Below are positions 1 to 47,194 of a stretch of 64,000 nucleotides of DNA, one piece after another. Numbering within the stretch: position 1 is the first letter of the stretch; every line of letters starts with the position of its first letter. The position numbers and the translations under genes are program-made. The DNA lies in assembly GCA_964567285.1 (NCBI GenBank), contig CAZMLO010000006.1:73303-137302 (forward strand), read 5' to 3'. Under the pieces are notes generated by a model. The model saw nothing but the letters and a program-made list of their open reading frames with translations. It made no database searches and was not told the origin of the DNA. Source of the DNA: an uncultured Gammaproteobacteria bacterium. Lineage in GTDB: Bacteria; Pseudomonadota; Gammaproteobacteria; JAIEPX01.

Positions 1-1562
1 TTGAGGCTTTCGATTATAATAGTAAGGAGACGCATAAATTCATATATGATGTTGCTAAACTCATGTTAGACCATGGTAACGCACACGATGCTGTGAGATG
101 CTATAAAGAATTATTAGATATTCTTGAGTCATCACCCCATACAGAGCCTTTAAAAATCGGGATTTGTTTAAGGCATATGGGTCGAGCAATGCTAAATATT
201 AATTTAATTGAAGCAAGAGTTGTGCTTGAAAAAGCCTTACAGATTCTTCAAAAAAATAAACTCCCTACAGAGATTGGAATGTGTTTGAGCGACATCGGTT
301 TTTCTTTCTTAGACTCAGATGTTCCAATGGCTAGAGTTCAACTCGAACAAGCATTACCTGTTCTTAGATCAACATTGGGTAATCAACATCTTGAAGTGGG
401 GCTTTGTTTAAGGAGTTTAGGTTTTGTATTACTTAAGCTTAATACTCTGAATGAAGCGGAGCGTAGATTCGAAGAAGCATTGCCTATTCTCAAAAGAGAG
501 AAACACCCTCAGGCTGGGAATTGTTTACTTAATCAAGGGTCTATTATGATGACTAAAGACCCAAAAAGAGCAAAGCTACTATTTGAAGAAGCTTTGCAAA
601 TTCTCAAAACCACCTTTGGTGATAGACATATTGATGTTGCTAAGTGTTTGGCAAATCTGGGATGGACTAAACTGAATCTGAATGATTATGATAATGCCCT
701 GATACTGTTTAAGGATGCTTTACCAATCTTTGAAGAAATTCTAGATCAATATAATCCTGATATTGCCGGCTGCTTAATGGGTTTAGGAAGAGCCCTATTC
801 ATGTGTAAAAATCCCGAACAGTCAGTAAAATATTTAACAAGGGCCTTAGATATTTTTAAACGGTCTTTTCCTATGACTCATCATCATATACAAACATGTC
901 TAAGTTTTATATCAGAAGCAACACAAGCGTGTACTCTGCTCGATGATAGGAGGCTTGATCCAGCCAAAGCAATATGCGTAGCTGCCGCAGAGGGAACTGT
1001 TGAGGAATTACAAAGATTGCTAGCTATCAATAAAAAGTACGCCAATACTCCGGAGAGTGTTCCTGGTAAGAAGTTGACTGCACTACACTGCGCTGTAAAA
1101 GGTGGTCGATCAGAGCATGTCCGAGTATTGTTAGAAACAATAGGGTTTACTTCGGTAAAAGATGCTAAGGGATGCACTGCTTTAGATTATGCTATCGAGG
1201 GAAATGATATACAAATCTTACAATATTTCGCTTTTTCAATACTGAAACTGTATGAAAAAGAAACACACGATAATCAATATATGTTGCCTCTAGTCTGTGT
1301 AAAATCTAATAATGAGTCTGCTCTAAAGTTGTTAATTCATCTGAATTGGCCAATTGATGGTGTAGATCCAAAAACCGGGCAATCAGCATTACATGTAGCC
1401 GTTCTTCAGAGGAATATAAAATTCATAAAGATGTTAATAGAAGCTGGTGCAGATCCTCAGCTAGAAGATCACAAAGGCCAATCACCCATTACTTTGGCTG
1501 AAAATAGTCCCGATATATTGGAAATATTATCAATTAAGCTAAAACTGTCTTTGAATTACTAA
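1..1562 (+). CDS. TPR (kinesin-light-chain-like, ~42-aa period) + ankyrin-repeat protein, 5'-partial
   Basis: ORF 63..1562. In-frame codons 3..62 have no stop, so the N-terminus probably lies upstream of the window. About six repeats of the type A..FEEALPIL...H..VA.CL.NLG, followed by canonical ANK motifs (TALHCAVKGGRSEHVRVLLE; GQSALHVAVLQRNIKFIKMLIEAGADP). Confidence 0.7.
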   Translation, partial: EAFDYNSKETHKFIYDVAKLMLDHGNAHDAVRCYKELLDILESSPHTEPLKIGICLRHMGRAMLNINLIEARVVLEKALQILQKNKLPTEIGMCLSDIGFSFLDSDVPMARVQLEQALPVLRSTLGNQHLEVGLCLRSLGFVLLKLNTLNEAERRFEEALPILKREKHPQAGNCLLNQGSIMMTKDPKRAKLLFEEALQILKTTFGDRHIDVAKCLANLGWTKLNLNDYDNALILFKDALPIFEEILDQYNPDIAGCLMGLGRALFMCKNPEQSVKYLTRALDIFKRSFPMTHHHIQTCLSFISEATQACTLLDDRRLDPAKAICVAAAEGTVEELQRLLAINKKYANTPESVPGKKLTALHCAVKGGRSEHVRVLLETIGFTSVKDAKGCTALDYAIEGNDIQILQYFAFSILKLYEKETHDNQYMLPLVCVKSNNESALKLLIHLNWPIDGVDPKTGQSALHVAVLQRNIKFIKMLIEAGADPQLEDHKGQSPITLAENSPDILEILSIKLKLSLNY

Positions 1563-5710: not shown

Positions 5711-8700
5711 TCAATAGGCAACTTCCACGGCATCGTTGCCATAGAGATGCTTTAAACTCTGTATTAAATCATTTTTGGGAAAAACCTTCCACTCATCTCC
5801 TAACAACATTCGGGCCCTGCCCTCTGAATTTTGGTAATTAATCAATACTCGGCAAGAACCTTGTTGAAACTGACGCAAGGTCGATTGTAAAGTTGGCAGC
5901 GTAGTTTCCATATTGGATATTTGAGTGGCATCAATCAGTAACGATTTGGCAAATTCACAGCGTGCCATCGAGAGATCCAAGATTCGCCTAGCGCTCATAC
6001 GAAGTCCTCCGCTGAACTCATCGATACTCACTTCGCCATCGATAATTAATAATTGATCCGCTTGAAGTAAAGGCCGGGCTTCTTCAAAGACTTCTGAAAA
6101 TACAGCAACTTCAATGATATCTTTACGATCTTCGATTTTCACAATGGCCATACGAGTATTTCGTTTAGTCATGAGTGTTCGAACGCTCACCACATAACCG
6201 GCCACCAACACTGTTTTTTTACGTTCGGTTGGTCGCAGGCTCGAAATATCATTGCTGATAAATTGGCGCAGTTCTTTTTCATATTGTTGAATAGGATGAC
6301 CACTTAAATAAAAACCGAGGGTTTCTTTTTCAGCTTGTAACCGTTCATCATCTCGCCAAGCAGGCACGCTCAGATATTCGACCTTAGTCGCCACATTCGT
6401 AGTAACCGCCATACCAAACAAATCTTGCTGACCAAATTCTTGATTTTTTCGGTGCTGATCGGAATAACGAAAGGCACTATCAATACTGGCTAATAAACTC
6501 GCTCGATGAGTGCCAAAATGATCCATCGCTCCTGCTTTGATTAAAGCTTCCAGCACACGACGATTCACTTTGCGCGTATCGACACGTTGGCAGAATTCGA
6601 ATAAATCCGTAAATGGCCCTTCTTTTCGCGCCTCTATAATATTATCAATGGCGGCTTCTCCCACGCCTTTTAAAGCACCTAAGCCATAAATTAAATGGGG
6701 TTTGCCGTTCGAAACAGATTGATAGTTCACAGTAAATTTATAATGGCTTTTATTCAGATCCGGTGGCTCAACCACCAAACCATTTTCTTCAGCATCTAAA
6801 ATAAAATTCACAACTTTATCGGTATTATCCATATCAGAAGATAAAACGGCTGCCATAAATTCTGCTGGGTAATAGGTTTTTAACCACGCTGTTTGATAGG
6901 ATAATAATGCATAAGTCGCTGAGTGCGATTTATTAAAACCATAGCCCGCAAATTTTTCCATCAAATCAAAAATTTGATTGGCTCGATCTTCAGGCACTTC
7001 TCGTTCTTTGCAACCGGTCACAAAAATTTCACGCTGCTCTGCCATTTCTTCCGCTTTTTTCTTACCCATTGCGCGACGTAATAAATCGGCAGCACCTAAA
7101 GTATAGCCTGCTAAAAATTGCGCAATCTGCATCACCTGCTCTTGGTATAAAATCACCCCATAAGTGGGTTTTAAAATGGGTGCTAAATCAGGATGCAAAT
7201 ATTCAACTCGTGCACGGCCGTGTTTACGATCGATAAAATCATCTACCATGCCCGATTGTAATGGACCGGGACGAAACAAAGCGACCAAGGCAATAATTTC
7301 TTCAAAAGCATCGGGTTTTAAGCGTTTAATTAAATCTTTCATGCCGCGGGATTCAAGCTGGAATACTGCAGTTGTGTTGCAGGCTTGCAGTAATTTAAAC
7401 ACTTTTTGATCGTTGAGGGGAATGGCTAAAATATCGATCGGTGTCTGACCTTGGTGTTGACGATGTGCATTAATCGTTTGGAGTGCCCAATCAATAATAG
7501 TCAGAGTACGTAAACCTAAAAAGTCGAATTTCACTAAACCTACGGCTTCCACATCGTCTTTGTCAAATTGCGTTACCAAATTTTCGCCGTTTTCTTCGCA
7601 ATAAAGCGGCGTAAAATCTGTTAATTTTGAAGGGGCAATCACCACACCACCGGCATGTTTTCCAGCATTACGAGAAATGCCTTCCAATTTTAGGGCCAAA
7701 TCAATCAGTGTCTTCACTTCTTCTTCGTTATAATAGCGGTTGAGCAATGTTTCGTCTTGTTTTAAAGCTTTTTCAAGTGTCATCCCCAACTCAAAGGGAA
7801 TTAATTTAGCGATTTTATCGACAAAACCGTAGGGATGTGAAAGTACCCGCCCCACATCGCGTACCACCGCTTTGGCCGCCATAGAACCGTACGTAATAAT
7901 CTGAGCCACACTGTCACGACCGTATTTTTCCGCCACATATTCAATGACGCGATCACGCCCCTCCATACAAAAATCAATATCAAAGTCCGGCATAGAAACG
8001 CGTTCAGGATTTAAAAAGCGCTCAAATAGTAATTCAAATTCGAGTGGATCAAGATCAGTAATATCCAGTGAATAAGCCACCAAAGAACCTGCACCAGAAC
8101 CCCGTCCTGGCCCCACCGGAATATTATTTTGTTTGGCCCACCGAATAAAATCTGCCACGATTAAAAAATAGCCTTCGAATCCCATAGAAGTGATGACATC
8201 GAGCTCTACTTCGAGACGATTAAGATATTCTTGTTTTTTTTCATCTGTCAGAGAAGCAGATGATTGTCTGATTTTTTCTAGACGATTATTCAATCCATTC
8301 CGAGCTTCACGTCGAAAGAATTCATCCGTTGTCATCCCTTCAGGAACGGGAAATTTGGGCAAATAATTTTTGCCAAGCGTTAAAGGGAGTGTGCATCGTT
8401 TAGAAATTTCAACAGAATTTTCCAGTGCTTCTGGAATATCCGCAAACAATGTGGCCATTTCTTCAGGCGTTCGGAGATATTGTTTCTCACTGTAAAGACG
8501 GGGTCGAGAAGGATCTTCAAGGGTGTAACCCCCATTAATGCAAACCCGCGCTTCGTGTGCTTCAAATTCATCAGCTTCTAAAAATCGCACATCGTTGGTG
8601 GCAACCACAGGCAATTGGAATTTTTGGGCCAACTGCAGATTGAGCTGCACTAGCTTTTCCTCATCAGCCCGTCCCGTCCGAATTAATTCCAAATAAAATC

Positions 8701-11126: not shown

Positions 11127-11399
11127 ATGTGGAAGGTTTATGAGAAGAAAACCTTAGTTAAAGAACTCCGTAATGTACCGACTCACGTTTTACAGGATTA
11201 TGAAGTGTGGAAACGAATTGTTGAGTTGGATGGCCTAGAAGGTCTTCGATTAATTAAGGGTTTTCATGACGAAGCACTCAAAGGAGAATGGAATGGTTAT
11301 CGCTCATCACGTCTTAATAAACAATGGCGAGTGATCTATATCCCTAAGCCAGATCACTTTGAAGTTTTTGTAGTAGAGGTTAACCCTCATCAATATTGA
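11127..11399 (+). CDS. RelE/ParE-superfamily toxin (HigB-like gene order, toxin first)
   Basis: 90 aa. C-terminal half is LKGEWNGYRSSRLNKQWRVIYIPKPDHFEVFVVEVNPHQY, typical of RelE-fold mRNA interferases. It sits 3 nt upstream of an HTH antitoxin gene. Confidence 0.75.
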   Translation: MWKVYEKKTLVKELRNVPTHVLQDYEVWKRIVELDGLEGLRLIKGFHDEALKGEWNGYRSSRLNKQWRVIYIPKPDHFEVFVVEVNPHQY

Positions 11400-11411
11400 G
11401 AGGTGCACAAA

Positions 11412-11678
11412 ATGAGTATTAATTATAAAGATTTTATCAATTCCCGTGTGCATACCAAAGTCACACCCGGGGAAGCCTTAAAAATAATTCGCGAGCTTCA
11501 AGAAATTTCACAAAATGAACTCGCTAAAGCTACCGGTATTTCTCAATCTAACATCTCCGCCTTGGAGCACGGAACTGCACAAATGGGCAGAGTCACCGCC
11601 ATAAAATTAGCCCAAGCATTGCATGTACATCCTGCTGTACTACTCTTTCCTGATTATGATATTCAGGAAGCTGCGTAA
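11412..11678 (+). CDS. XRE-family HTH antitoxin (HigA-like)
   Basis: HTH segment ISQNELAKATGISQSNISALEHG. ATG at 11412 has a GAGAGG SD 8 nt upstream; the ORF-track start is GTG 11403. Confidence 0.75.
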   Translation: MSINYKDFINSRVHTKVTPGEALKIIRELQEISQNELAKATGISQSNISALEHGTAQMGRVTAIKLAQALHVHPAVLLFPDYDIQEAA

Positions 11679-12918: not shown

Positions 12919-12949
12919 CTATAAAAAATATCGGGAGAAATTCATCGTA

Positions 12950-15790
12950 TTATTTTGGTAAAGACGTGAGTGTTGAGTTATTTGATGATAATAATAAATT
13001 GAGTCGTTTCTGAATGCAATCGACAAGTTCTACCTCATAGGGCCTTAACAGATCAAGAGCTTCAAGACAAAGCGACTCTTTTTCGGATATATTTCCAAGC
13101 GATTCATGAGATTTGGCCATGAAGTACAAAATATTAACTCTCATAAGAGGCAAAGATTGAAGACTGGTTTTGCTTAGGCATTCACTCAAGCTAGCCAGTG
13201 CAATTTGCGGCTGGCCCCCATACAAAAGAATGAGTGAGTAGTTGAATAACAAAGATATATGCCATTTCGAAATCGCACCTTCTTTTTTCAAAATACTCTC
13301 TAAGTGTGATAATGTTGAAGGCAAAGTATCTTTATCATTCATTCTTTCAATTGAGGCACAATTAAAATCACAAGCCTGTATCATAATATGATCAGAAGGA
13401 TAAAAGAGTTTTAAATGATTACGGCTGTTATCGTAATATCTTAGTGCCTGAGCTGTATCACCCGCGTATAAATAAGCATCCCCTTGGCGGTAATAAATCC
13501 AACCTAGAAAATCACTAAAATCTTGAAAACTCTCTGTAATTAATTGTTTTGCCACAATAAAACACTGTTGTGCGGCAGAGGGGTTACCCAAATGCAGTTG
13601 CAAATCGCCTAAATTATAGAAAGGGTAGAATTTCGAGGGGTAATTCTCCCCTGCTTCAAAAAATATCTTTATCGATAAATGGAGATGTTGGAATGCGCCT
13701 TTGAGATCCCCTTTATATTGATTGATCGAAGAGAAATTATTATAAGCCATGGCTAGATCTGTGGAGGAGGGAAAACGACTTTTATATATTTCAATAGCTT
13801 TAATATAATAAGGTACTGAAGCATCACGTTCATCTTGCTTATTCAGAGTTATTGCATAACCGACATAAGTGAGAGCTAACAAATAATAACATAAATTTTC
13901 AGGTTCCAGTTTTTTTCCCAAACAATAATTAATTTCTTTTTCTGCTGACAAAAATCCTTGGGCAGCACTTTTTAGAGCATTAAGATTATAGTTGGCATAA
14001 GCTAAAAATACTCGCGCAATGATAAACTCAAAACCACCCGCAAAATATGATTCTTTTTTTTCAATTGAAGCCATTAGATACTCAACAGAAAGAGTAAACT
14101 GGCCTAGATGATAATAAATTATTCCTAGACAACTCAATACGGAAGTATAGAAAGGATCAGACTGAAGGTGCAATTTTTTGATATGCTCCAAAATACTGAG
14201 TAGATGAGGAATAAGTAGTCTCCGTACTTTGAATTCTTCGGTAGTCAAAACTCTTTTTACAGGTGTAAGCGATTGAAAACTGCTGGTTATATCATGAATT
14301 AATATTCGTGAATTTAGATTGATAATACTATGATTATTTGCATGTCGGCTTTGTACTGCTAATTGAGTGAGTTTATGAATACATATTCCCCCCTCAGAGT
14401 CCCAAACTAATCCAAACATTTTTAGTAAGGATATGGCTGAATTCAAAGATTGAATCTCTGGAATGATACATAATAAGATCTCTAAAGGAATAGTAGTATG
14501 TAAATAGGCTATTCGTTCCAATAAATAGAGGGTTTTTTGAGGATTGGGACTTGCTTCTATAGCCTCTATTGTCATTTCTATAGTGCGCCTAATCGTACAT
14601 TGATGGTCTACCGGCCCTTTCTCGTGTGTCCAAGCGGTATGAGGATTTTTATTAAAGTCATCGATATATTTCCGTACTGATATCCTGCCATTCGAATTTT
14701 TAATATAAAAACCTGCCTGACAGATAGGTAGAGCTAGCATACCTAATGTTTCGCCAAGGACAATCAATTCTGAATCAGTAGCTTGAACTGTATCCCGAAA
14801 AAGAGCACGTAGGACGGCTATAACATCCTCTTTCTCAAAAAGGGGTAAAGGTCTTACTCTAACTTGTTGCCAATCAGGATTTGTTGTTGTAATGAGTACA
14901 TGACCAACACCGACACAACGAAAGGGTAATAATTCCTTAACCTCTTCTTCTTTTAGGACATCTTCTATGACTAAGAGCCAATTCAAAGGGGTTTCTTCTA
15001 AAAATCGTCTAACATTTTTAGTAATGGCTACAATTGAACAATTGGTCCAGTGAATTTTTTTTGAGACTTCTTCCTCTCCGAGGGAGTGATTAATTTCTTT
15101 TGCCAGATCAGTAATGTCATTTTCAAAATTGCGAAAGGATAGATAAAAAATAATATGATAATTATTTTTTACAGTCTCGCAAAACTTTCGACTCAATTGT
15201 GATTTACCTGCTCCACTATGTCCAGTAATAGCACGGGTTATGACCTGATGGGGTATCATAGGAAAATCATCAATCAAAATTTTTAATTCTCTCACCCTAT
15301 TAACAAAATAGAGAGAAGGATTTTCTGCGTTACAAATGATCAGCTTATCCGTTCCCTGTGCAACATTTTTATTAACAAAAAAGGAAGCCTTTGTAGCATT
15401 TTGAATTAAGCCTCTTGAAAAATTAGGTTGAGGCAAAACAATTTGTGTTTGAATATAATTAATGGTGGATTTCGGGGTTTCGGAACTTAAAACAATATCA
15501 ACATTGGTTTTTATTGCTTCAATTTCCTTAACATCTAAATGACTCAGTCCTTCTAGAATTTTCGCTTCAAATGTTGTATTTGTTTCCGTAGCGCTAAGCT
15601 TTATAATATCCAACAAAAACCCTTTGAGAGACTCTGAAAGTTCGAGTCTATCAAGGCTATCTGTAGTAACAGAGAGATGTGATTGTTTCAGTCGAAGTAG
15701 TATTTCGCTTAGCCAAGGGGGTGGGGGTGTGTTTGTGCTCTTGAATTGAGGAGATAACTGTTCAGGATTTTGAAGAGCTAGTTTTTGCAT
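12950..15790 (-). CDS. STAND (NB-ARC-like) P-loop NTPase with C-terminal TPR array and an unassigned ~160-aa N-terminal domain
   Basis: 946 aa. FVNRVRELKIL precedes Walker A GHSGAGKS (aa 190-197, nt ~15200-15223). Walker B is WLLVIEDV and an NB-ARC-like motif HVLITTTN follows. The C-terminal ~400 aa are TPR-like (YYHLGQF..A..Y, YKGDLKGAFQHL, YAGDTAQALRYY). The start lies 3 nt after the stop of the radical-SAM gene. Confidence 0.8.
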   Translation of the reverse strand: MQKLALQNPEQLSPQFKSTNTPPPPWLSEILLRLKQSHLSVTTDSLDRLELSESLKGFLLDIIKLSATETNTTFEAKILEGLSHLDVKEIEAIKTNVDIVLSSETPKSTINYIQTQIVLPQPNFSRGLIQNATKASFFVNKNVAQGTDKLIICNAENPSLYFVNRVRELKILIDDFPMIPHQVITRAITGHSGAGKSQLSRKFCETVKNNYHIIFYLSFRNFENDITDLAKEINHSLGEEEVSKKIHWTNCSIVAITKNVRRFLEETPLNWLLVIEDVLKEEEVKELLPFRCVGVGHVLITTTNPDWQQVRVRPLPLFEKEDVIAVLRALFRDTVQATDSELIVLGETLGMLALPICQAGFYIKNSNGRISVRKYIDDFNKNPHTAWTHEKGPVDHQCTIRRTIEMTIEAIEASPNPQKTLYLLERIAYLHTTIPLEILLCIIPEIQSLNSAISLLKMFGLVWDSEGGICIHKLTQLAVQSRHANNHSIINLNSRILIHDITSSFQSLTPVKRVLTTEEFKVRRLLIPHLLSILEHIKKLHLQSDPFYTSVLSCLGIIYYHLGQFTLSVEYLMASIEKKESYFAGGFEFIIARVFLAYANYNLNALKSAAQGFLSAEKEINYCLGKKLEPENLCYYLLALTYVGYAITLNKQDERDASVPYYIKAIEIYKSRFPSSTDLAMAYNNFSSINQYKGDLKGAFQHLHLSIKIFFEAGENYPSKFYPFYNLGDLQLHLGNPSAAQQCFIVAKQLITESFQDFSDFLGWIYYRQGDAYLYAGDTAQALRYYDNSRNHLKLFYPSDHIMIQACDFNCASIERMNDKDTLPSTLSHLESILKKEGAISKWHISLLFNYSLILLYGGQPQIALASLSECLSKTSLQSLPLMRVNILYFMAKSHESLGNISEKESLCLEALDLLRPYEVELVDCIQKRLNLLLSSNNSTLTSLPK

Positions 15791-15793
15791 AAT

Positions 15794-16951
15794 TTACAGG
15801 GGTTTTGTCATCTTATTTAAAACTACGTCCGTTAGTACTTGTACTGTAAGTTTGCATTCAACTGTTTCAGTTGTATCAAATCTCCCGTGCTCATAAAATT
15901 TATTAGAAGGTGATCCCCCGCCGCATAGATCAAAATAATCACAGCTTTCTGCACAGTTCTTTATACCTTGGGTAATGGAGGCTAGTTGTTGCTGAAAATC
16001 AAGTGATTTTTCTAGCTCTTCAAATCGCTTAATATTGAGGACGTTTCCAATTACAAATTTCTGGGGTTCGTTAGGAGTGCCACCGGCCATTTCTGGTGAA
16101 AATGTAGTTACATTACCATCTTTAGATATTGTTATAACACAGAATGCCACAGTTACATCCTTGGGAAATACACGATCCGGTGAGTGCTTTTTAATTAAAA
16201 GAAGTTGTCCTACGCCATTAATTTCTCTTATTTCCATAGCTCTACCATCAGCATCCCACAGATCATAAAGCCTTTCGAAAAACTCCTTATATCTTTCGAT
16301 TAGTCTCTGTCCAGATGTACCTGATAATGCAGCTCCGTAACTTGAGCTCTTATTATCGCCGTCTTGTTCGTCAATATTAAAACTGATTGATTCAAAGCCT
16401 TCAGTTTTGTAAAATTGAAAAATCTCGTCGGGATAATCAAGGCTGTAATCGGATAGGACCGCTATCGATCTTAAAGGGATATGATGCTTCTTCAGGTAGC
16501 TAACGCCTTGCATTGCTTTGTCGAAAGACCCTTTATTTCCCCACGTCTTTCTAAATCGATCATGAATATGGGCTGGTCCATCAATACTAACAGTTGCTTG
16601 GTAATTATATTCCCTGAAAAAGTCACACCATTCATCATTAATTAAAGTGGCATTGGTTTGGATACCCATATGAAATTTTCTGTTATAGATATTACACTTC
16701 TCGACTAATCTGTTAGCATTTTTATAAAAGTCTATCCCCGCCACCAAAGGTTCACCCGCATGCCAAACAAAGTTTATTATATCTTCATCATCGGTTGGTT
16801 GTGTTACTTCGCTCTCAAAAACGCAACGAAGAGCTCCAATGAGTACTTCGTCAGACATCAGTTGTTTATTTTTTCTGTCTGGAACATAGCAATATGAACA
16901 ATTTAAGTTACAAAAATTGGTAGGTTGCAATACAACAAGAGATGTTATCAT
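15794..16951 (-). CDS. radical SAM / SPASM-domain peptide-maturase-like enzyme (anSME superfamily)
   Basis: 385 aa. LQPTNFCNLNCSYCYV gives Cx3Cx2C at aa 14-21, followed by WHAGEPL. The C-terminal Cys cluster CAESCDYFDLCGGGSP...VEC is typical of SPASM/twitch auxiliary Fe-S sites. Confidence 0.85.
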   Translation of the reverse strand: MITSLVVLQPTNFCNLNCSYCYVPDRKNKQLMSDEVLIGALRCVFESEVTQPTDDEDIINFVWHAGEPLVAGIDFYKNANRLVEKCNIYNRKFHMGIQTNATLINDEWCDFFREYNYQATVSIDGPAHIHDRFRKTWGNKGSFDKAMQGVSYLKKHHIPLRSIAVLSDYSLDYPDEIFQFYKTEGFESISFNIDEQDGDNKSSSYGAALSGTSGQRLIERYKEFFERLYDLWDADGRAMEIREINGVGQLLLIKKHSPDRVFPKDVTVAFCVITISKDGNVTTFSPEMAGGTPNEPQKFVIGNVLNIKRFEELEKSLDFQQQLASITQGIKNCAESCDYFDLCGGGSPSNKFYEHGRFDTTETVECKLTVQVLTDVVLNKMTKPL

Positions 16952-16966
16952 AGCAAATGATCTTCA

Positions 16967-17215
16967 TTACCACTTAAGTTTGAAAGCATTGAAAGCACAG
17001 TATGCTTGATAACTAGTGTTGACTCTAAGAATCGGAACTCTATCTTCATCTTCAGGTTTGATTTCGTTCAAGTCATCTAAAATACGATTTTTTGTCGGTC
17101 GTGGAGTAATAAATAAGGGGTAATACCCTTTTTCAACGAATTGTCTAATCCGCAAATTTGTTTTTCCATCCGGTTGCTCAATTGGGTCTTCTTTATCATT
17201 ATTTTCTGTACTCAT
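16967..17215 (-). CDS. 82-aa candidate RiPP precursor peptide (acidic leader, aromatic period-3 C-terminal core)
   Basis: GGAGA SD 6 nt upstream of the ATG. The stop lies 15 nt upstream of the radical-SAM start. The C-terminus is ...NTS-YQA-YCA-FNA-FKL-KW. Confidence 0.55.
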   Translation of the reverse strand: MSTENNDKEDPIEQPDGKTNLRIRQFVEKGYYPLFITPRPTKNRILDDLNEIKPEDEDRVPILRVNTSYQAYCAFNAFKLKW

Positions 17216-17467
17216 CGGGTATCTCCATGAATAATATCTTGAATATGTTATATTATAATTTTAAATTTGTATATAGTGTTCATTGCATCTAAACTAAATA
17301 ATCAATAGTCTAACCATTATCGTAGCACACCAAAATATTATTAAATATTCAGCAGCTACTGCCCATTGATAGGTAATTTATTACACGACTTTCAGAATAC
17401 AGCCACTTGATAATTTTATGAAAAGTGATACTGTTCTACTTCCATTAACTAAAAGGAGAATTATTCA

Positions 17468-17902
17468 ATGAACTCAATCAAAAAAGCGATCCTGGTTGGT
17501 AGCAGTGTTTTAGCAATCGTTTTTGCTGCAAATTCTGCGCTAGCAGTGGGGCATAATGGTCACAAAGGTCATGCAAAAATCTGGAAAGACCAAGGACCAA
17601 ACATCGTAGTAACAGCTGATCCTAGCGATTTTGCTTACTCTATGAAATTAAAGTATGTACTCAAGAACAATGCTACTGGCAAACCGGTTAAAATTGACGT
17701 TGATCAAGCTGGCGTTGCTAACGCGCTTGCTCAATTGCAAACAGTCGGCACAGGCAACGTTCTTGTGATCAAAGAACTGTCTTTCAAAGATGCTAATGGC
17801 AAGAAATTAGATAATTGCAACATGATCAAAAACTCTGCTTTTGTCAGTGGTGCTTCTTCTGTTTCTATCGCTATCAGCGCAAACGGCTGTGTTGTACAGT
17901 AA
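17468..17902 (+). CDS. small secreted protein of unknown function (Sec signal peptide)
   Basis: AAAGGAGA SD. Signal peptide is MNSIKKAILVGSSVLAIVFAANSALA/VG. The mature N-terminus is His-rich (HNGHKGH). Two Cys lie near the C-terminus. A strong terminator follows. Confidence 0.7.
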   Translation: MNSIKKAILVGSSVLAIVFAANSALAVGHNGHKGHAKIWKDQGPNIVVTADPSDFAYSMKLKYVLKNNATGKPVKIDVDQAGVANALAQLQTVGTGNVLVIKELSFKDANGKKLDNCNMIKNSAFVSGASSVSIAISANGCVVQ

Positions 17903-17913
17903 TTTTGCTCTAT

Positions 17914-17943
17914 AAAAAAGGGGGCTCTTAGCCCCCTTTTTTT
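17914..17943. terminator. bidirectional rho-independent terminator
   Basis: aaaaaa-GGGGGC-tctta-GCCCCC-ttttttt, located between convergent genes (17902 + / 17955 -). Confidence 0.8.
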
Positions 17944-17954
17944 ATGTCGGAAAA

Positions 17955-27461: not shown

Positions 27462-28351
27462 TATTGAGCTCCCTGAACTTGTGCCATAACTTCTTCTGCA
27501 AAATTGTCTTCGCGCTTTTCAATACCTTCACCCACTTCAAATCGTTCGAAAGCGAGCACTTTTGCTTTTGCTTTGTTGAGTAATTCTCGCACCGAAATGG
27601 AGGGGTCTTTAACAAAGGGCTGTCCTTCCAAACTCACTTCGGCTAAGAATTTATCAACGCGACCTTGAACCATTTTAGTGATGATTTCAGCGGGCTTTCC
27701 GCTATCGGCTGCTTGCGCTGTAAAAATTTCTCTTTCTTTAGTGATAATTTCTGCAGGAATTTCATTGGCGGAAATAGCTTGTGGTTTAGAAGCCGCGATA
27801 TGCATCGCAATATCTTTACCCAAGTCTACGTTGTCAGAATCTAATTTTACGACAACGCCAATTTTATTCCCGTGTCGATAAGACGCTAAAGGATGATCAG
27901 AGCTCAGCAATTTAATGCGGCGAATTTGGATATTCTCGCCGATTTTTGCAACCAATTCTTGGCGAGCTTGTTCAATACTTTGATCAGAACCTGCTTGAAT
28001 AGGACGCTGACTCAATGCATTGATATCGGTGATTTTTGCAGCCAATGCTTCTTCGCAAGCGCTGTTCGCAAATTTCAAGAAATTTTCATCACGGCCCACG
28101 AAATCCGTTTCGCAATTAAATTCGGCAATCACAGCTGTTTTAGAGTCGTCACTTAACTTGATAATAACAACACCTTCAGCTGTTACGCGATCCGCCTTTT
28201 TATCAGCTTTCGCAGCACCTGCAATACGCATGGCTTCAACAGCGGCTTCGATATCGCCATTGGCTTCAACCAGCGCTCTTTTGCAATCCATCATTCCCGC
28301 ACCGGTACGATTTCTGAGTTCATTCACTAAGGAAGCTTTAATCGTCATCAT
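27461..28351 (-). CDS. tsf: elongation factor Ts
   Basis: [17 protein letters not shown] start, with a conserved core and dimerisation region. Confidence 0.95.
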
Positions 28352-35489: not shown

Positions 35490-36341
35490 TTAAAAAGAAG
35501 GTCCACTTAGGCTATTAGATTGAGATTTTATGAGGGCAGTAAGAGTATCCAAATTGGATGATTGTCGATTCTCTTCTTCAATATGGGCGCGGGTTGTGAC
35601 AATGATTTTTTCTATTAGCTCGGCAGGTAAATTATTAGCTCGATCGACACCTTCAAAGTTACCTGAGATTAAAAAAGCCAGTTGTACAATAAGTGGTTTC
35701 GGTAATTTCACGTTTATGAAAGTATCTAAACACCGACAGAGAAGTTTATCTTGATCATCGAGTGTTAACGTTGAATTTTCTAGTATCCATGCCGCACATA
35801 CAAATTGTCCGAAATAGAAAGCATAAAACAATACAGTACGATCGATATTATCTTTTGCACTTAGTAGTTCCGGTTTTTTTTCACTGAGCGATTTGAGTAA
35901 TTCTATCTGTCCCCCCATTGATGCTAAGTGCATAACGTTAGCACCCGCGGAATTACGCTGAGTAAATAACTCATCACCTAATAAAGCGTCTAATGCATCT
36001 TTATTACCAGCGAATGCTGCCAATTCCCAAGCACTCTCCATTTGCTCGATGAACGGACTGATTGTAAAAGATTCGGCAGGTGGGCCAATTTGAAAAGAAA
36101 GGGATCGCATCAACTTCACTTTATTTAAGGGATATCTTTTAAAAATTTCTGCATTTAATAAGCTTGAAGGTATACTTTGGAGATAATGATTAGGTAATGC
36201 TCTTTCAATGATCACCTTTCTCCATGCCCTTGAAACCCCCATGAATGGACGTAGTTGAGCGGGTTTAAAGAATTGGAACACGCAAGCCAGCACGTCTGGG
36301 GATGGTGCGAACACGGCAGATTGTTCATCTTCTTCTTTCAT
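35490..36341 (-). CDS. F-box + ankyrin-repeat protein (eukaryote-like, AnkB-type architecture)
   Basis: F-box: SPDVLACVFQFFKPAQLRPFMGVSRAWRKVII (aa ~14-47). ANK: GANVMHLASMGGQIELLKSLSE... and DRTVLFYAFYFGQFVCAAWILE. Confidence 0.8.
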   Translation of the reverse strand: MKEEDEQSAVFAPSPDVLACVFQFFKPAQLRPFMGVSRAWRKVIIERALPNHYLQSIPSSLLNAEIFKRYPLNKVKLMRSLSFQIGPPAESFTISPFIEQMESAWELAAFAGNKDALDALLGDELFTQRNSAGANVMHLASMGGQIELLKSLSEKKPELLSAKDNIDRTVLFYAFYFGQFVCAAWILENSTLTLDDQDKLLCRCLDTFINVKLPKPLIVQLAFLISGNFEGVDRANNLPAELIEKIIVTTRAHIEEENRQSSNLDTLTALIKSQSNSLSGPSF

Positions 36342-46642: not shown

Positions 46643-47194
46643 ATGGCCTCAATTTCGCGCTTCATACTCTTGTCCTTTTCCCTTATCGCGTTGACCTGGA
46701 CCTTCGAAGCGAAGGCAAAACCCCCACAAATTTGCTATTGCCCCTGTCCTACGGCTCCTGTTGTCAACTTGAAAGACCCTAAAATTGGACCCATTCGATT
46801 ATTAAATTGGGTGAGTGACGCTGCCACCCTGTCTTTCCATTACGACTATCGTGACATCGAGAAGTGGATGAGGGAATATTCACCCTACTTCGACACCCGC
46901 GGTTGGTTTCATTACTACCAAGCACTCAAGAATTCAGGCAATCTAGAGAAAGTCGCTCAAGATCAAATTACAGTCAGTTCTGTACCGCTAGCACCCGCTA
47001 CAGTCCTCTGGGAAGGGGTTGATTTAGAAGTATACAAATGGCGTGTACAAATTCCTTTGCTTGTTCAGTACCAATTTGCTTCCGGGAAACTTATTCAACA
47101 GAAGATGTTGGTCAATATGTCGTTGCGTAGAATACCTGATTCTCTCGGTAAAGATGGCATTGGCATTGAGAGATTTATTGCGAAACCAATTTAA
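46643..47194 (+). CDS. IcmL/DotI-family protein (type IVB secretion-related paralogue), signal peptide
   Basis: The pattern W..DA...SF.YDY......YF...GW..Y..AL..SGNLE.V......VSSVP.APA......G...Y.W.VQIPLLVQYQ......GIGIE.FIA mirrors my recollection of Legionella IcmL/DotI. No other dot/icm genes lie nearby. Confidence 0.6.
   Translation: MASISRFILLSFSLIALTWTFEAKAKPPQICYCPCPTAPVVNLKDPKIGPIRLLNWVSDAATLSFHYDYRDIEKWMREYSPYFDTRGWFHYYQALKNSGNLEKVAQDQITVSSVPLAPATVLWEGVDLEVYKWRVQIPLLVQYQFASGKLIQQKMLVNMSLRRIPDSLGKDGIGIERFIAKPI

Follow-up and report, generated by a model that had tools for sequence, protein, structure and literature searches.

Triceptide synthases, a group of radical S-adenosylmethionine (SAM) enzymes, join the ring of an aromatic residue to the C-beta of X3 in aromatic-X2-X3 motifs (PMC11499958, PMC11002830). 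They are mined and engineered for strained macrocyclic peptides, and current engineering work asks which residues they accept at X3 (HtkB D214H, HaaB H204D; PMC11499958). OscB joins Trp-C7 or Phe-C4 to the C-beta of Asn or Asp, and precursors of the OscB type have W/F-x-N/D repeats, are often Gly-rich and in many cases carry a signal-peptide-like N-terminus. HaaB and ScaB form links to the C-beta of Ala in His-Ala-Ala motifs (His-C2 to Ala C-beta in the case of HaaB), and a ScaB substrate with His replaced by Tyr acquires a Tyr-C3 to Ala C-beta link (PMC11002830). ChlB, finally, acts on a YDR motif, i.e. with Arg at X3 (PMC11499958). Here we describe a locus found in 64,000 nucleotides of DNA from an uncultured gammaproteobacterium (contig CAZMLO010000006.1, positions 73,303 to 137,302; the whole stretch is hereafter called the window). 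In this locus a small open reading frame (ORF) of 82 codons probably encodes the precursor of a peptide that is made by ribosomes and altered after translation (a RiPP), modified by the radical SAM enzyme of the GrrM/OscB family that is encoded directly downstream. All of the following elements lie on the minus strand:

16967..17215, minus strand: putative precursor peptide gene, 82 aa plus TAA stop, with a leader of approximately residues 1-68 and a core of residues 69-82 (from the ORF list and homology).
16970..17011, minus strand: putative core YQA-YCA-FNA-FKL-KW, in which four aromatic-X-X motifs follow one another directly and Trp is the last residue.
17117..17131, minus strand: leader motif K29-G30-Y31-Y32-P33 (the motif, with G-[FY]-[YFL]-P as the consensus of the family, is present in 11 of 12 aligned precursors).
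17223..17226, minus strand: Shine-Dalgarno sequence GGAG, 7 nt 5' of the ATG (GGAGAT is identical in the homologous locus L001).
15794..16951, minus strand: radical SAM peptide maturase of the GrrM/OscB family, 385 aa, starting 15 nt past the precursor stop (TIGR04261, PF04055).
12950..15790, minus strand: STAND NTPase (NB-ARC) and TPR protein, 946 aa, starting 3 nt past the maturase stop (Pfam NB-ARC, TPR_12).

The maturase matches PF04055 and scores 364.9 bits against the GrrM/OscB model TIGR04261 (cut-off 310), while no other maturase model gives a score that reaches its cut-off, among them AmcB (277 bits against a cut-off of 425), DynA (170/450) and YhhB (151/445). The same is true of the FxsB model (103.6/370) and of TIGR04496 for XyeB (97.4/450), which places the system outside the XYE group. 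A CX3CX2C motif is formed by C14, C18 and C21, and four more cysteines are found toward the C-terminus (C333, C337, C343 and C366), all of them invariant in 25 members of the clade; the conserved C-terminal cysteines number only four, which would suffice for a single auxiliary cluster. Among solved structures, the closest by sequence are those of anSME (4k37, 1e-25) and of the triceptide synthase ChlB (9gm3, 1e-13), both distant relatives. Among 5.8 billion proteins nothing is more than 51% identical to the maturase, its own species cluster and the enzyme of L001 excepted. The only PADLOC matches obtained, those of the maturase to viperin-type models, were discarded, as they span just its N-terminal radical SAM region. 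Judged by its enzyme, the system thus belongs to the triceptide class, GrrM/OscB family.

The full translation of 16967-17215 on the minus strand is MSTENNDKEDPIEQPDGKTNLRIRQFVEKGYYPLFITPRPTKNRILDDLNEIKPEDEDRVPILRVNTSYQAYCAFNAFKLKW, and 16970-17011 codes exactly for its last 14 residues, YQAYCAFNAFKLKW. The peptide ends in VNTS-Y69-Q-A-Y72-C-A-F75-N-A-F78-K-L-K-W82, followed by the stop codon. Its aromatic residues are F26, Y31, Y32, F35, Y69, Y72, F75, F78 and W82, which bears out the strict period of three at 69, 72, 75 and 78, with a terminal Trp, that had been remarked on in the first-pass annotation; the X positions are all non-aromatic. A run of at least four strict aromatic-x-x units was obtained with a frequency of 0.0027 in 200,000 shuffles of the peptide, rising to 0.005 when aromatics were also permitted at the X positions. 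The window has 523 ORFs of 30 aa or more, and two of them show such a run, the other being a 39-aa ORF at 27464-27583 that is probably spurious. The periodicity is by itself only moderately unlikely, and its weight comes from the context. The leader had been described as acidic and charged. With 14 Asp/Glu and 11 Lys/Arg in residues 1-65 it is indeed charged, while its acidity is mild (net charge about -3). Likewise, the 9-bp near-repeat noted earlier in the core, GCTTTCAAT followed by GCTTTCAAA (16996-16979, minus strand), is real, with 8 of 9 bases identical, but the unit duplication read into it is weakly founded because the similarity drops to 6 of 9 in the L001 homologue and follows for the most part from the repetition of Ala-Phe codons.

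The exact 82-aa peptide has been called as a gene in four independent assemblies of the same organism. One homologue (P0002) was identified in another metagenome, on L001. It is 76% identical and lies 15 nt upstream of a radical SAM gene whose product is 92% identical to the window enzyme. Over the whole peptide the two genes differ by 22 synonymous and 20 non-synonymous codon changes, strongly partitioned along the length: residues 1-15 have 0 synonymous and 10 non-synonymous changes, residues 16-65 have 17 and 9, and the 14-residue core (69-82) has 5 and 0, leaving the core invariant. This distribution indicates selection acting on the protein, strongest on the aromatic C-terminus and the central leader. 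A core and recognition region under constraint, next to an N-terminus that is free to vary, form a RiPP-like pattern. The small ORF is therefore a genuine gene.

Searches with the peptide did not reach further. A k-mer and phmmer search returned only the peptide itself and P0002, an exhaustive profile search of 1.84 billion representatives returned only the peptide itself, and a profile of 12 precursors recovered only its own input sequences. Pfam and NCBIfam contain no family for the peptide, with no NCBIfam precursor model at E<=1. The family was therefore assembled through the neighbors of the enzyme. Ten related loci were read (L023, L024, L025, L027, L028, L029, L270, L271, L272 and L273), whose radical SAM enzymes are 43-51% identical to that of the window. 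At every one of them a small ORF is situated directly upstream on the same strand, giving eleven ORFs in total, as L271 has two. The ORF of L273 is cut by the contig end, so that its leader falls outside the sequence read. The ten complete ORFs are 77-119 aa long, carry three to five aromatic-X-X motifs each and share little sequence beyond a leader motif, G-[FY]-[YFL]-P, which is found in nine of them and missing from the second ORF of L271. When 12 precursors are aligned, near-invariance is confined to the columns of G30 and P33, and the corresponding K-G-Y-Y-P of the window peptide is presumed to be the recognition element for the maturase. The motif regions read as follows:

Window: EKGYYPLF
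L023: SKGFYPFF
L024: EAGYFPEL
L025: EKGFLPHL
L027: RLGFLPAL
L028: RRGYYPFF
L029: EQGFLPNV
L270: DKGYYPII
L271, first ORF: QKGLLPDI
L272: AKGFLPEV

When a test profile built from the ten complete upstream ORFs, with the window and L001 peptides left out, was run against the 523 window ORFs, the precursor ORF was the sole significant match (E=1.7e-5; next E=0.27). The aromatic-X-X motifs of the clade are located near the C-terminus, either contiguous or with a single spacer residue between them, as illustrated by these cores:

FRD-S-FAN-H-FNN-S-FSK-M-YSR
FAQ-WGM-FRN
WLD-V-WGN-V-WSK-FGA
WFD-R-WYQ-T-WMN

The upstream ORF of L273 ends in NFIFRDYSAYCKYNMYAKMSI, i.e. FRD-YSA-YCK-YNM-YAK(-MSI), with the same back-to-back period of three as in the window, and the two cores can be aligned as Y-x-A-Y-C-x-aromatic-N-x-aromatic. 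Loss of the small ORF, or of its aromatic periodicity, from homologous loci had been named beforehand as an outcome that would speak against a precursor; in the loci read, both the ORF and the aromatic-X-X motifs are conserved. The window enzyme and that of L273 (P0016) are not nearest neighbors, and the columns in which they agree against the clade consensus are five scattered positions with no clear meaning. At more distant GrrM-type loci (34-40% identity) the upstream peptides have WGN/WNN/WRN or FPN repeats.

About half of the clade precursors (L024, L025, L027, L028, L271 and L272) continue after the aromatic motifs into an acidic C-terminal extension. A basic pair (SFKR, GFRR, SLKR) often closes this extension, an arrangement suggestive of a follower peptide. 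The peptides of the window, L001, L023, L029, L270 and L273 stop right after the core. A multi-core precursor of a different style was seen at L113 (1500-1733; radical SAM enzyme 40% identical), where the peptide has four exact FTNQPPPDP repeats.

Compared with the described systems, the locus is closest to OscA/OscB (GRRM), in that its maturase falls in the same NCBIfam family above the cut-off, the precursor lies directly upstream, and the core consists of several contiguous aromatic-X-X triplets, for which a C-C link from the aromatic ring to a C-beta would be expected by analogy. It differs in having Tyr/Phe-x-Ala/Leu rather than Trp-based motifs and a cytoplasmic-type charged leader with KGYYP, with no signal-like segment; neither the Asn/Asp at X3 nor the Gly-rich repeats that mark GRRM/OscA-OscB precursors were found. 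The most important difference from the described GrrM/OscA systems is the Ala or Leu at X3. A crosslink to the C-beta of Ala at X3, as well as a large TPR protein in the cluster (HaaT), is a feature of HaaA/HaaB/HaaT, and ScaB shares the former. The native aromatic residue is His in those systems, however, whereas the window core has no His and shares just the Ala at X3; furthermore, the TPR protein of the window does not match the HaaT model and its enzyme is of the GrrM/OscB family. The FxsA/FxsB/FxsC systems (FxSxx-COOH; MscB) have the same three-gene logic of a peptide, a radical SAM/SPASM enzyme and an NTPase-TPR protein, and also a Phe at position -5. On this account the C-terminus had been thought to echo the FxSxx-COOH rule, a likeness that we abandon: the window peptide ends in F-K-L-K-W, with Leu for Ser at -3, there is no FxsA-family match, FxsB and FxsC score below their cut-offs, and the C-termini are not conserved among the relatives, in which the position of the last aromatic residue relative to the C-terminus varies. 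The window system is consequently an unusual member of the known triceptide class, and not a new kind of system.

The sequences themselves show the gene order, the family of the enzyme, the conservation of the core under purifying selection and the place of the peptide among the upstream ORFs; from these data we infer the modification of the peptide, the number and positions of its links and any role of the STAND/TPR protein. The precursor, maturase and STAND/TPR genes would be co-transcribed, given the intergenic gaps of 15 nt and 3 nt. The leader (approximately residues 1-68), with its K-G-Y-Y-P motif, would dock the peptide on the GrrM/OscB-family radical SAM enzyme, which would cleave SAM reductively and abstract a side-chain hydrogen in the C-terminal core. 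The resulting carbon could then be joined to a nearby aromatic ring, with 2 Da lost per link, and up to four adjacent small cyclophane rings might be formed in Y69-L80. The likeliest register would be the canonical one, from ring i to C-beta i+2 (Y69-A71, Y72-A74, F75-A77 and F78-L80), in which case the chemistry would be Ala/Leu-directed as in HaaB and ScaB, and not Asn/Asp-directed as in OscB. That the C-terminus is a core for the adjacent cyclophane-forming enzyme, as first proposed, is supported by the TIGR04261 score, the selection on the core, the upstream ORFs of the relatives and the profile match, and we consider the substrate role probable. The canonical four-ring register, in contrast, is a tentative assignment that takes up rather less than half of our total confidence, as the X3 residues are atypical in all four motifs.

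Several observations weigh against this interpretation. X3 in the window core is Ala, Ala, Ala and Leu, with no aromatic-X-Asn/Asp/Lys motif. The motifs of 59 distant GrrM-type precursors have Asn at X3 in 65% of cases, Asp in 3%, Ala in 1% and Leu in 0.7%, and among 47 motifs of the close clade it is N/D/K/Q/R/S in 36, Ala in three and Leu in none. Experiments on other synthases point in the same direction: HtkB gave only a trace product from a K3A substrate, thus rejecting Ala at X3 (PMC11499958), and an S7A change in the MicB system led to loss of the ring (PMC12912966). The window and L273 cores, although only two sequences, keep the aromatics and the X2 residues (Cys and Asn) and not X3, whereas the reverse would be predicted from the canonical register. 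In addition, the 5-kb insertion that holds the operon encodes no leader protease, transporter or exporter, and the peptide has a single homologue by peptide search, so that the link to the family rests on a short motif and synteny. By analogy with HaaB and ScaB, the canonical register appears chemically possible while atypical for the GrrM/OscB family. Since X3 is Ala or Leu, the linked atoms are not readable from the sequence.

The best surviving alternative is that the peptide is the substrate of the maturase but receives links other than from aromatic(i) to C-beta(i+2). The register could be reversed, with the polar residue at i-2 as the partner (Q70-Y72, C73-F75, N76-F78), the rings could be larger (four-residue rings between successive aromatics), a link could be made via the single Cys73, or just one or two of the four motifs could be modified. 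The string can in fact also be read as T-S-Y, Q-A-Y, C-A-F and N-A-F, which puts a polar residue at i-2 of every ring, and it lacks the polar X3 expected of a forward reading. Between the window and L273 the Cys and Asn are kept, while the i+2 residues differ (A/K, A/M and L/K). Radical SAM cyclophane synthases as a group are able to make three- to five-residue rings with C-C, C-N and C-O links (PMC11499958), and C-gamma links are known from WprB (PMC11851443). In all characterized members of the GrrM/OscB and other triceptide families, on the other hand, the link runs N-to-C from residue i to residue i+2 (PMC11002830, PMC11499958), a forward reading with a polar X3 comes naturally for the other ten clade precursors (e.g. 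FRD-S-FAN-H-FNN-S-FSK and WLD-V-WGN-V-WSK), and the conservation argument is drawn from two sequences. We therefore regard a non-canonical register as unlikely, yet as an option to be reckoned with.

Far less probable is that the small protein, though real and conserved, is not modified by the radical SAM enzyme and instead serves e.g. as a partner or regulator of the STAND/TPR protein, with the substrate of the enzyme encoded elsewhere. TPR proteins bind peptides, and in the Htk system the precursor is co-purified with an accessory protein, HtkC, that does not modify it (PMC11499958); the insertion without protease or exporter and the atypical X3 residues would also fit. However, the position, orientation and 15-nt spacing of the ORF are those of precursors throughout the family, no other window ORF matches the precursor profile, and the aromatic C-terminus is the most strongly conserved part, as is expected of a core. 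The idea that the ORF arose by chance between genes in AT-rich DNA and owes its periodicity to accident, in favor of which one can cite the AT-rich surroundings, a shuffle frequency as moderate as about 0.003-0.005 and the second window ORF with such a run, is effectively refuted by the strongly partitioned codon changes relative to L001 and by the match to the clade precursor profile, the conserved GGAG and the gene calls in four assemblies adding to this.

If the preferred reading of the peptide as a modified substrate holds, a GrrM/OscB-family enzyme acting on a core of Tyr/Phe-x-Ala/Leu motifs only would widen the substrate scope of triceptide synthases, and would provide a natural case of Ala/Leu-directed crosslinking by Tyr and Phe as well as a compact four-ring scaffold. 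The analysis also defines a small, unnamed precursor family with the leader motif G-[FY]-[YFL]-P, which is missed by standard peptide searches, and it ties STAND/TPR proteins to a GrrM-related clade in addition to the Fxs and Haa systems. A more far-reaching proposal, which we consider conceivable but on balance doubtful, is that a GrrM-clade enzyme natively joins Tyr and Phe to an unactivated Ala methyl or Leu C-beta, or uses a new or reversed register, to give four back-to-back rings over 12 residues, a chemotype new to the family. The source would be a minimal three-gene island of an uncultured gammaproteobacterium, probably an intracellular one (Dot/Icm-bearing), and the STAND/TPR protein would be an obligatory partner.

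The STAND/TPR protein scores 91.5 bits against the FxsC model (cut-off 300), over residues 162-440 only, its NTPase part resembling the N-terminal third of that model, and just 11.2 bits against HaaT (E=0.068; cut-off 1125). Homologues adjoin the precursor/radical SAM pair in L028 (3e-34 over about 670 residues), in L025 (2e-20), where the protein is fused to adenylation, carrier and thioesterase domains, and in L273 (2e-14). Other large TPR proteins are annotated beside the pairs in L024, L027 and L272; these gave no direct match to the STAND/TPR protein of the window, in the case of L027 and L272 when compared as translations broken by stop codons. By analogy, the association with precursor/radical SAM pairs parallels that of FxsC and HaaT. 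PADLOC was searched with a role in defense in mind and gave no match to the STAND/TPR protein. Fusions of STAND/TPR to nonribosomal peptide synthetase-like adenylation, carrier-protein and thioesterase domains, of 2,300 aa or more, were seen in L025 (1-4553), L027 (1-4610) and L272 (9465-11176). The relatives have extra genes that are missing from the insertion of the window, namely those for an unknown protein of 270-290 aa, for an Asp-protease-like protein and for an ABC transporter.

The surroundings of the operon are made up of the following features:

12919..17954, unstranded: low-GC insertion of 5,036 bp with four genes, placed where lpxB and lpxA converge by their 3' ends.
17252..17257, minus strand: possible -10 box TATAAT, assigned with low confidence (the L001 counterpart reads CATAAT).
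17468..17902, plus strand: protein of 144 aa whose N-terminus resembles a signal peptide, encoded divergently from the operon within the segment missing from L274.
46643-47194 (plus strand), 63-1562 (plus strand) and 35490-36341 (minus strand): DotI/IcmL and two ankyrin-repeat proteins (Pfam or by eye).

The GC content of the insertion is 34-38%, against 42-49% in the flanks. The closest relative in the species collection is the metagenome-assembled genome Gammaproteobacteria JTS-AC386 (L274), with Dxr 69% and LpxA 79% identical. It has the same layout, bamA-skp-lpxD-fabZ-lpxA / lpxB-oxidoreductase-rnhB-dnaE, and an empty site with 48 nt between the ends of lpxA and lpxB (6774-6822), and it follows that the operon is part of an insertion of 5 kb. 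Neither direct nor inverted repeats were detected on the two sides of 12919-17954. JTS-AC386 has a clade member of its own (P0004, L023), at a different locus and with a different core.

The candidate -10 box sits in a block, TATACAA(A)TTTAAA..ATAAT, that is common to the upstream region of L001. A promoter and terminator scan showed no enrichment over shuffles, and the TATAAT at 17252..17257 was not among the sites it listed. A terminator-like hairpin, AAGGGTATTACCCCTT (17130-17115, minus strand), located on the KGYYPL leader codons, is probably a coincidence, as synonymous changes in L001 disrupt it. The 144-aa protein is cargo of the same insertion as the operon. It has a His-rich stretch (GHNGHKGH). 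NCBIfam, Pfam and PADLOC gave no significant family match for it, and it showed no resemblance to the signal-peptide protein that lies upstream of a GrrM-type locus in Tatlockia.

Another segment missing from L274 is found at 11127-11678 (plus strand), between a GFO/IDH/MocA oxidoreductase gene and lpxB. It encodes a toxin of the RelE/HigB-like kind (90 aa), for which the Pfam matches to YafQ and HigB are weak and stay below the cut-offs, and an HTH_3 antitoxin-like protein (91 aa). Further away, the window contains a DotI/IcmL type IVB secretion component (PF11393, 2.5e-31) and two proteins with ankyrin repeats; the first is fused to TPRs or the second is, and the remaining one has an N-terminus that looks F-box-like by eye. 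Together, the DotI/IcmL and ankyrin-repeat genes suggest a gammaproteobacterial host that is Legionellales-like and possibly intracellular. A Tatlockia metagenome-assembled genome (L031) likewise has a GrrM-type locus.

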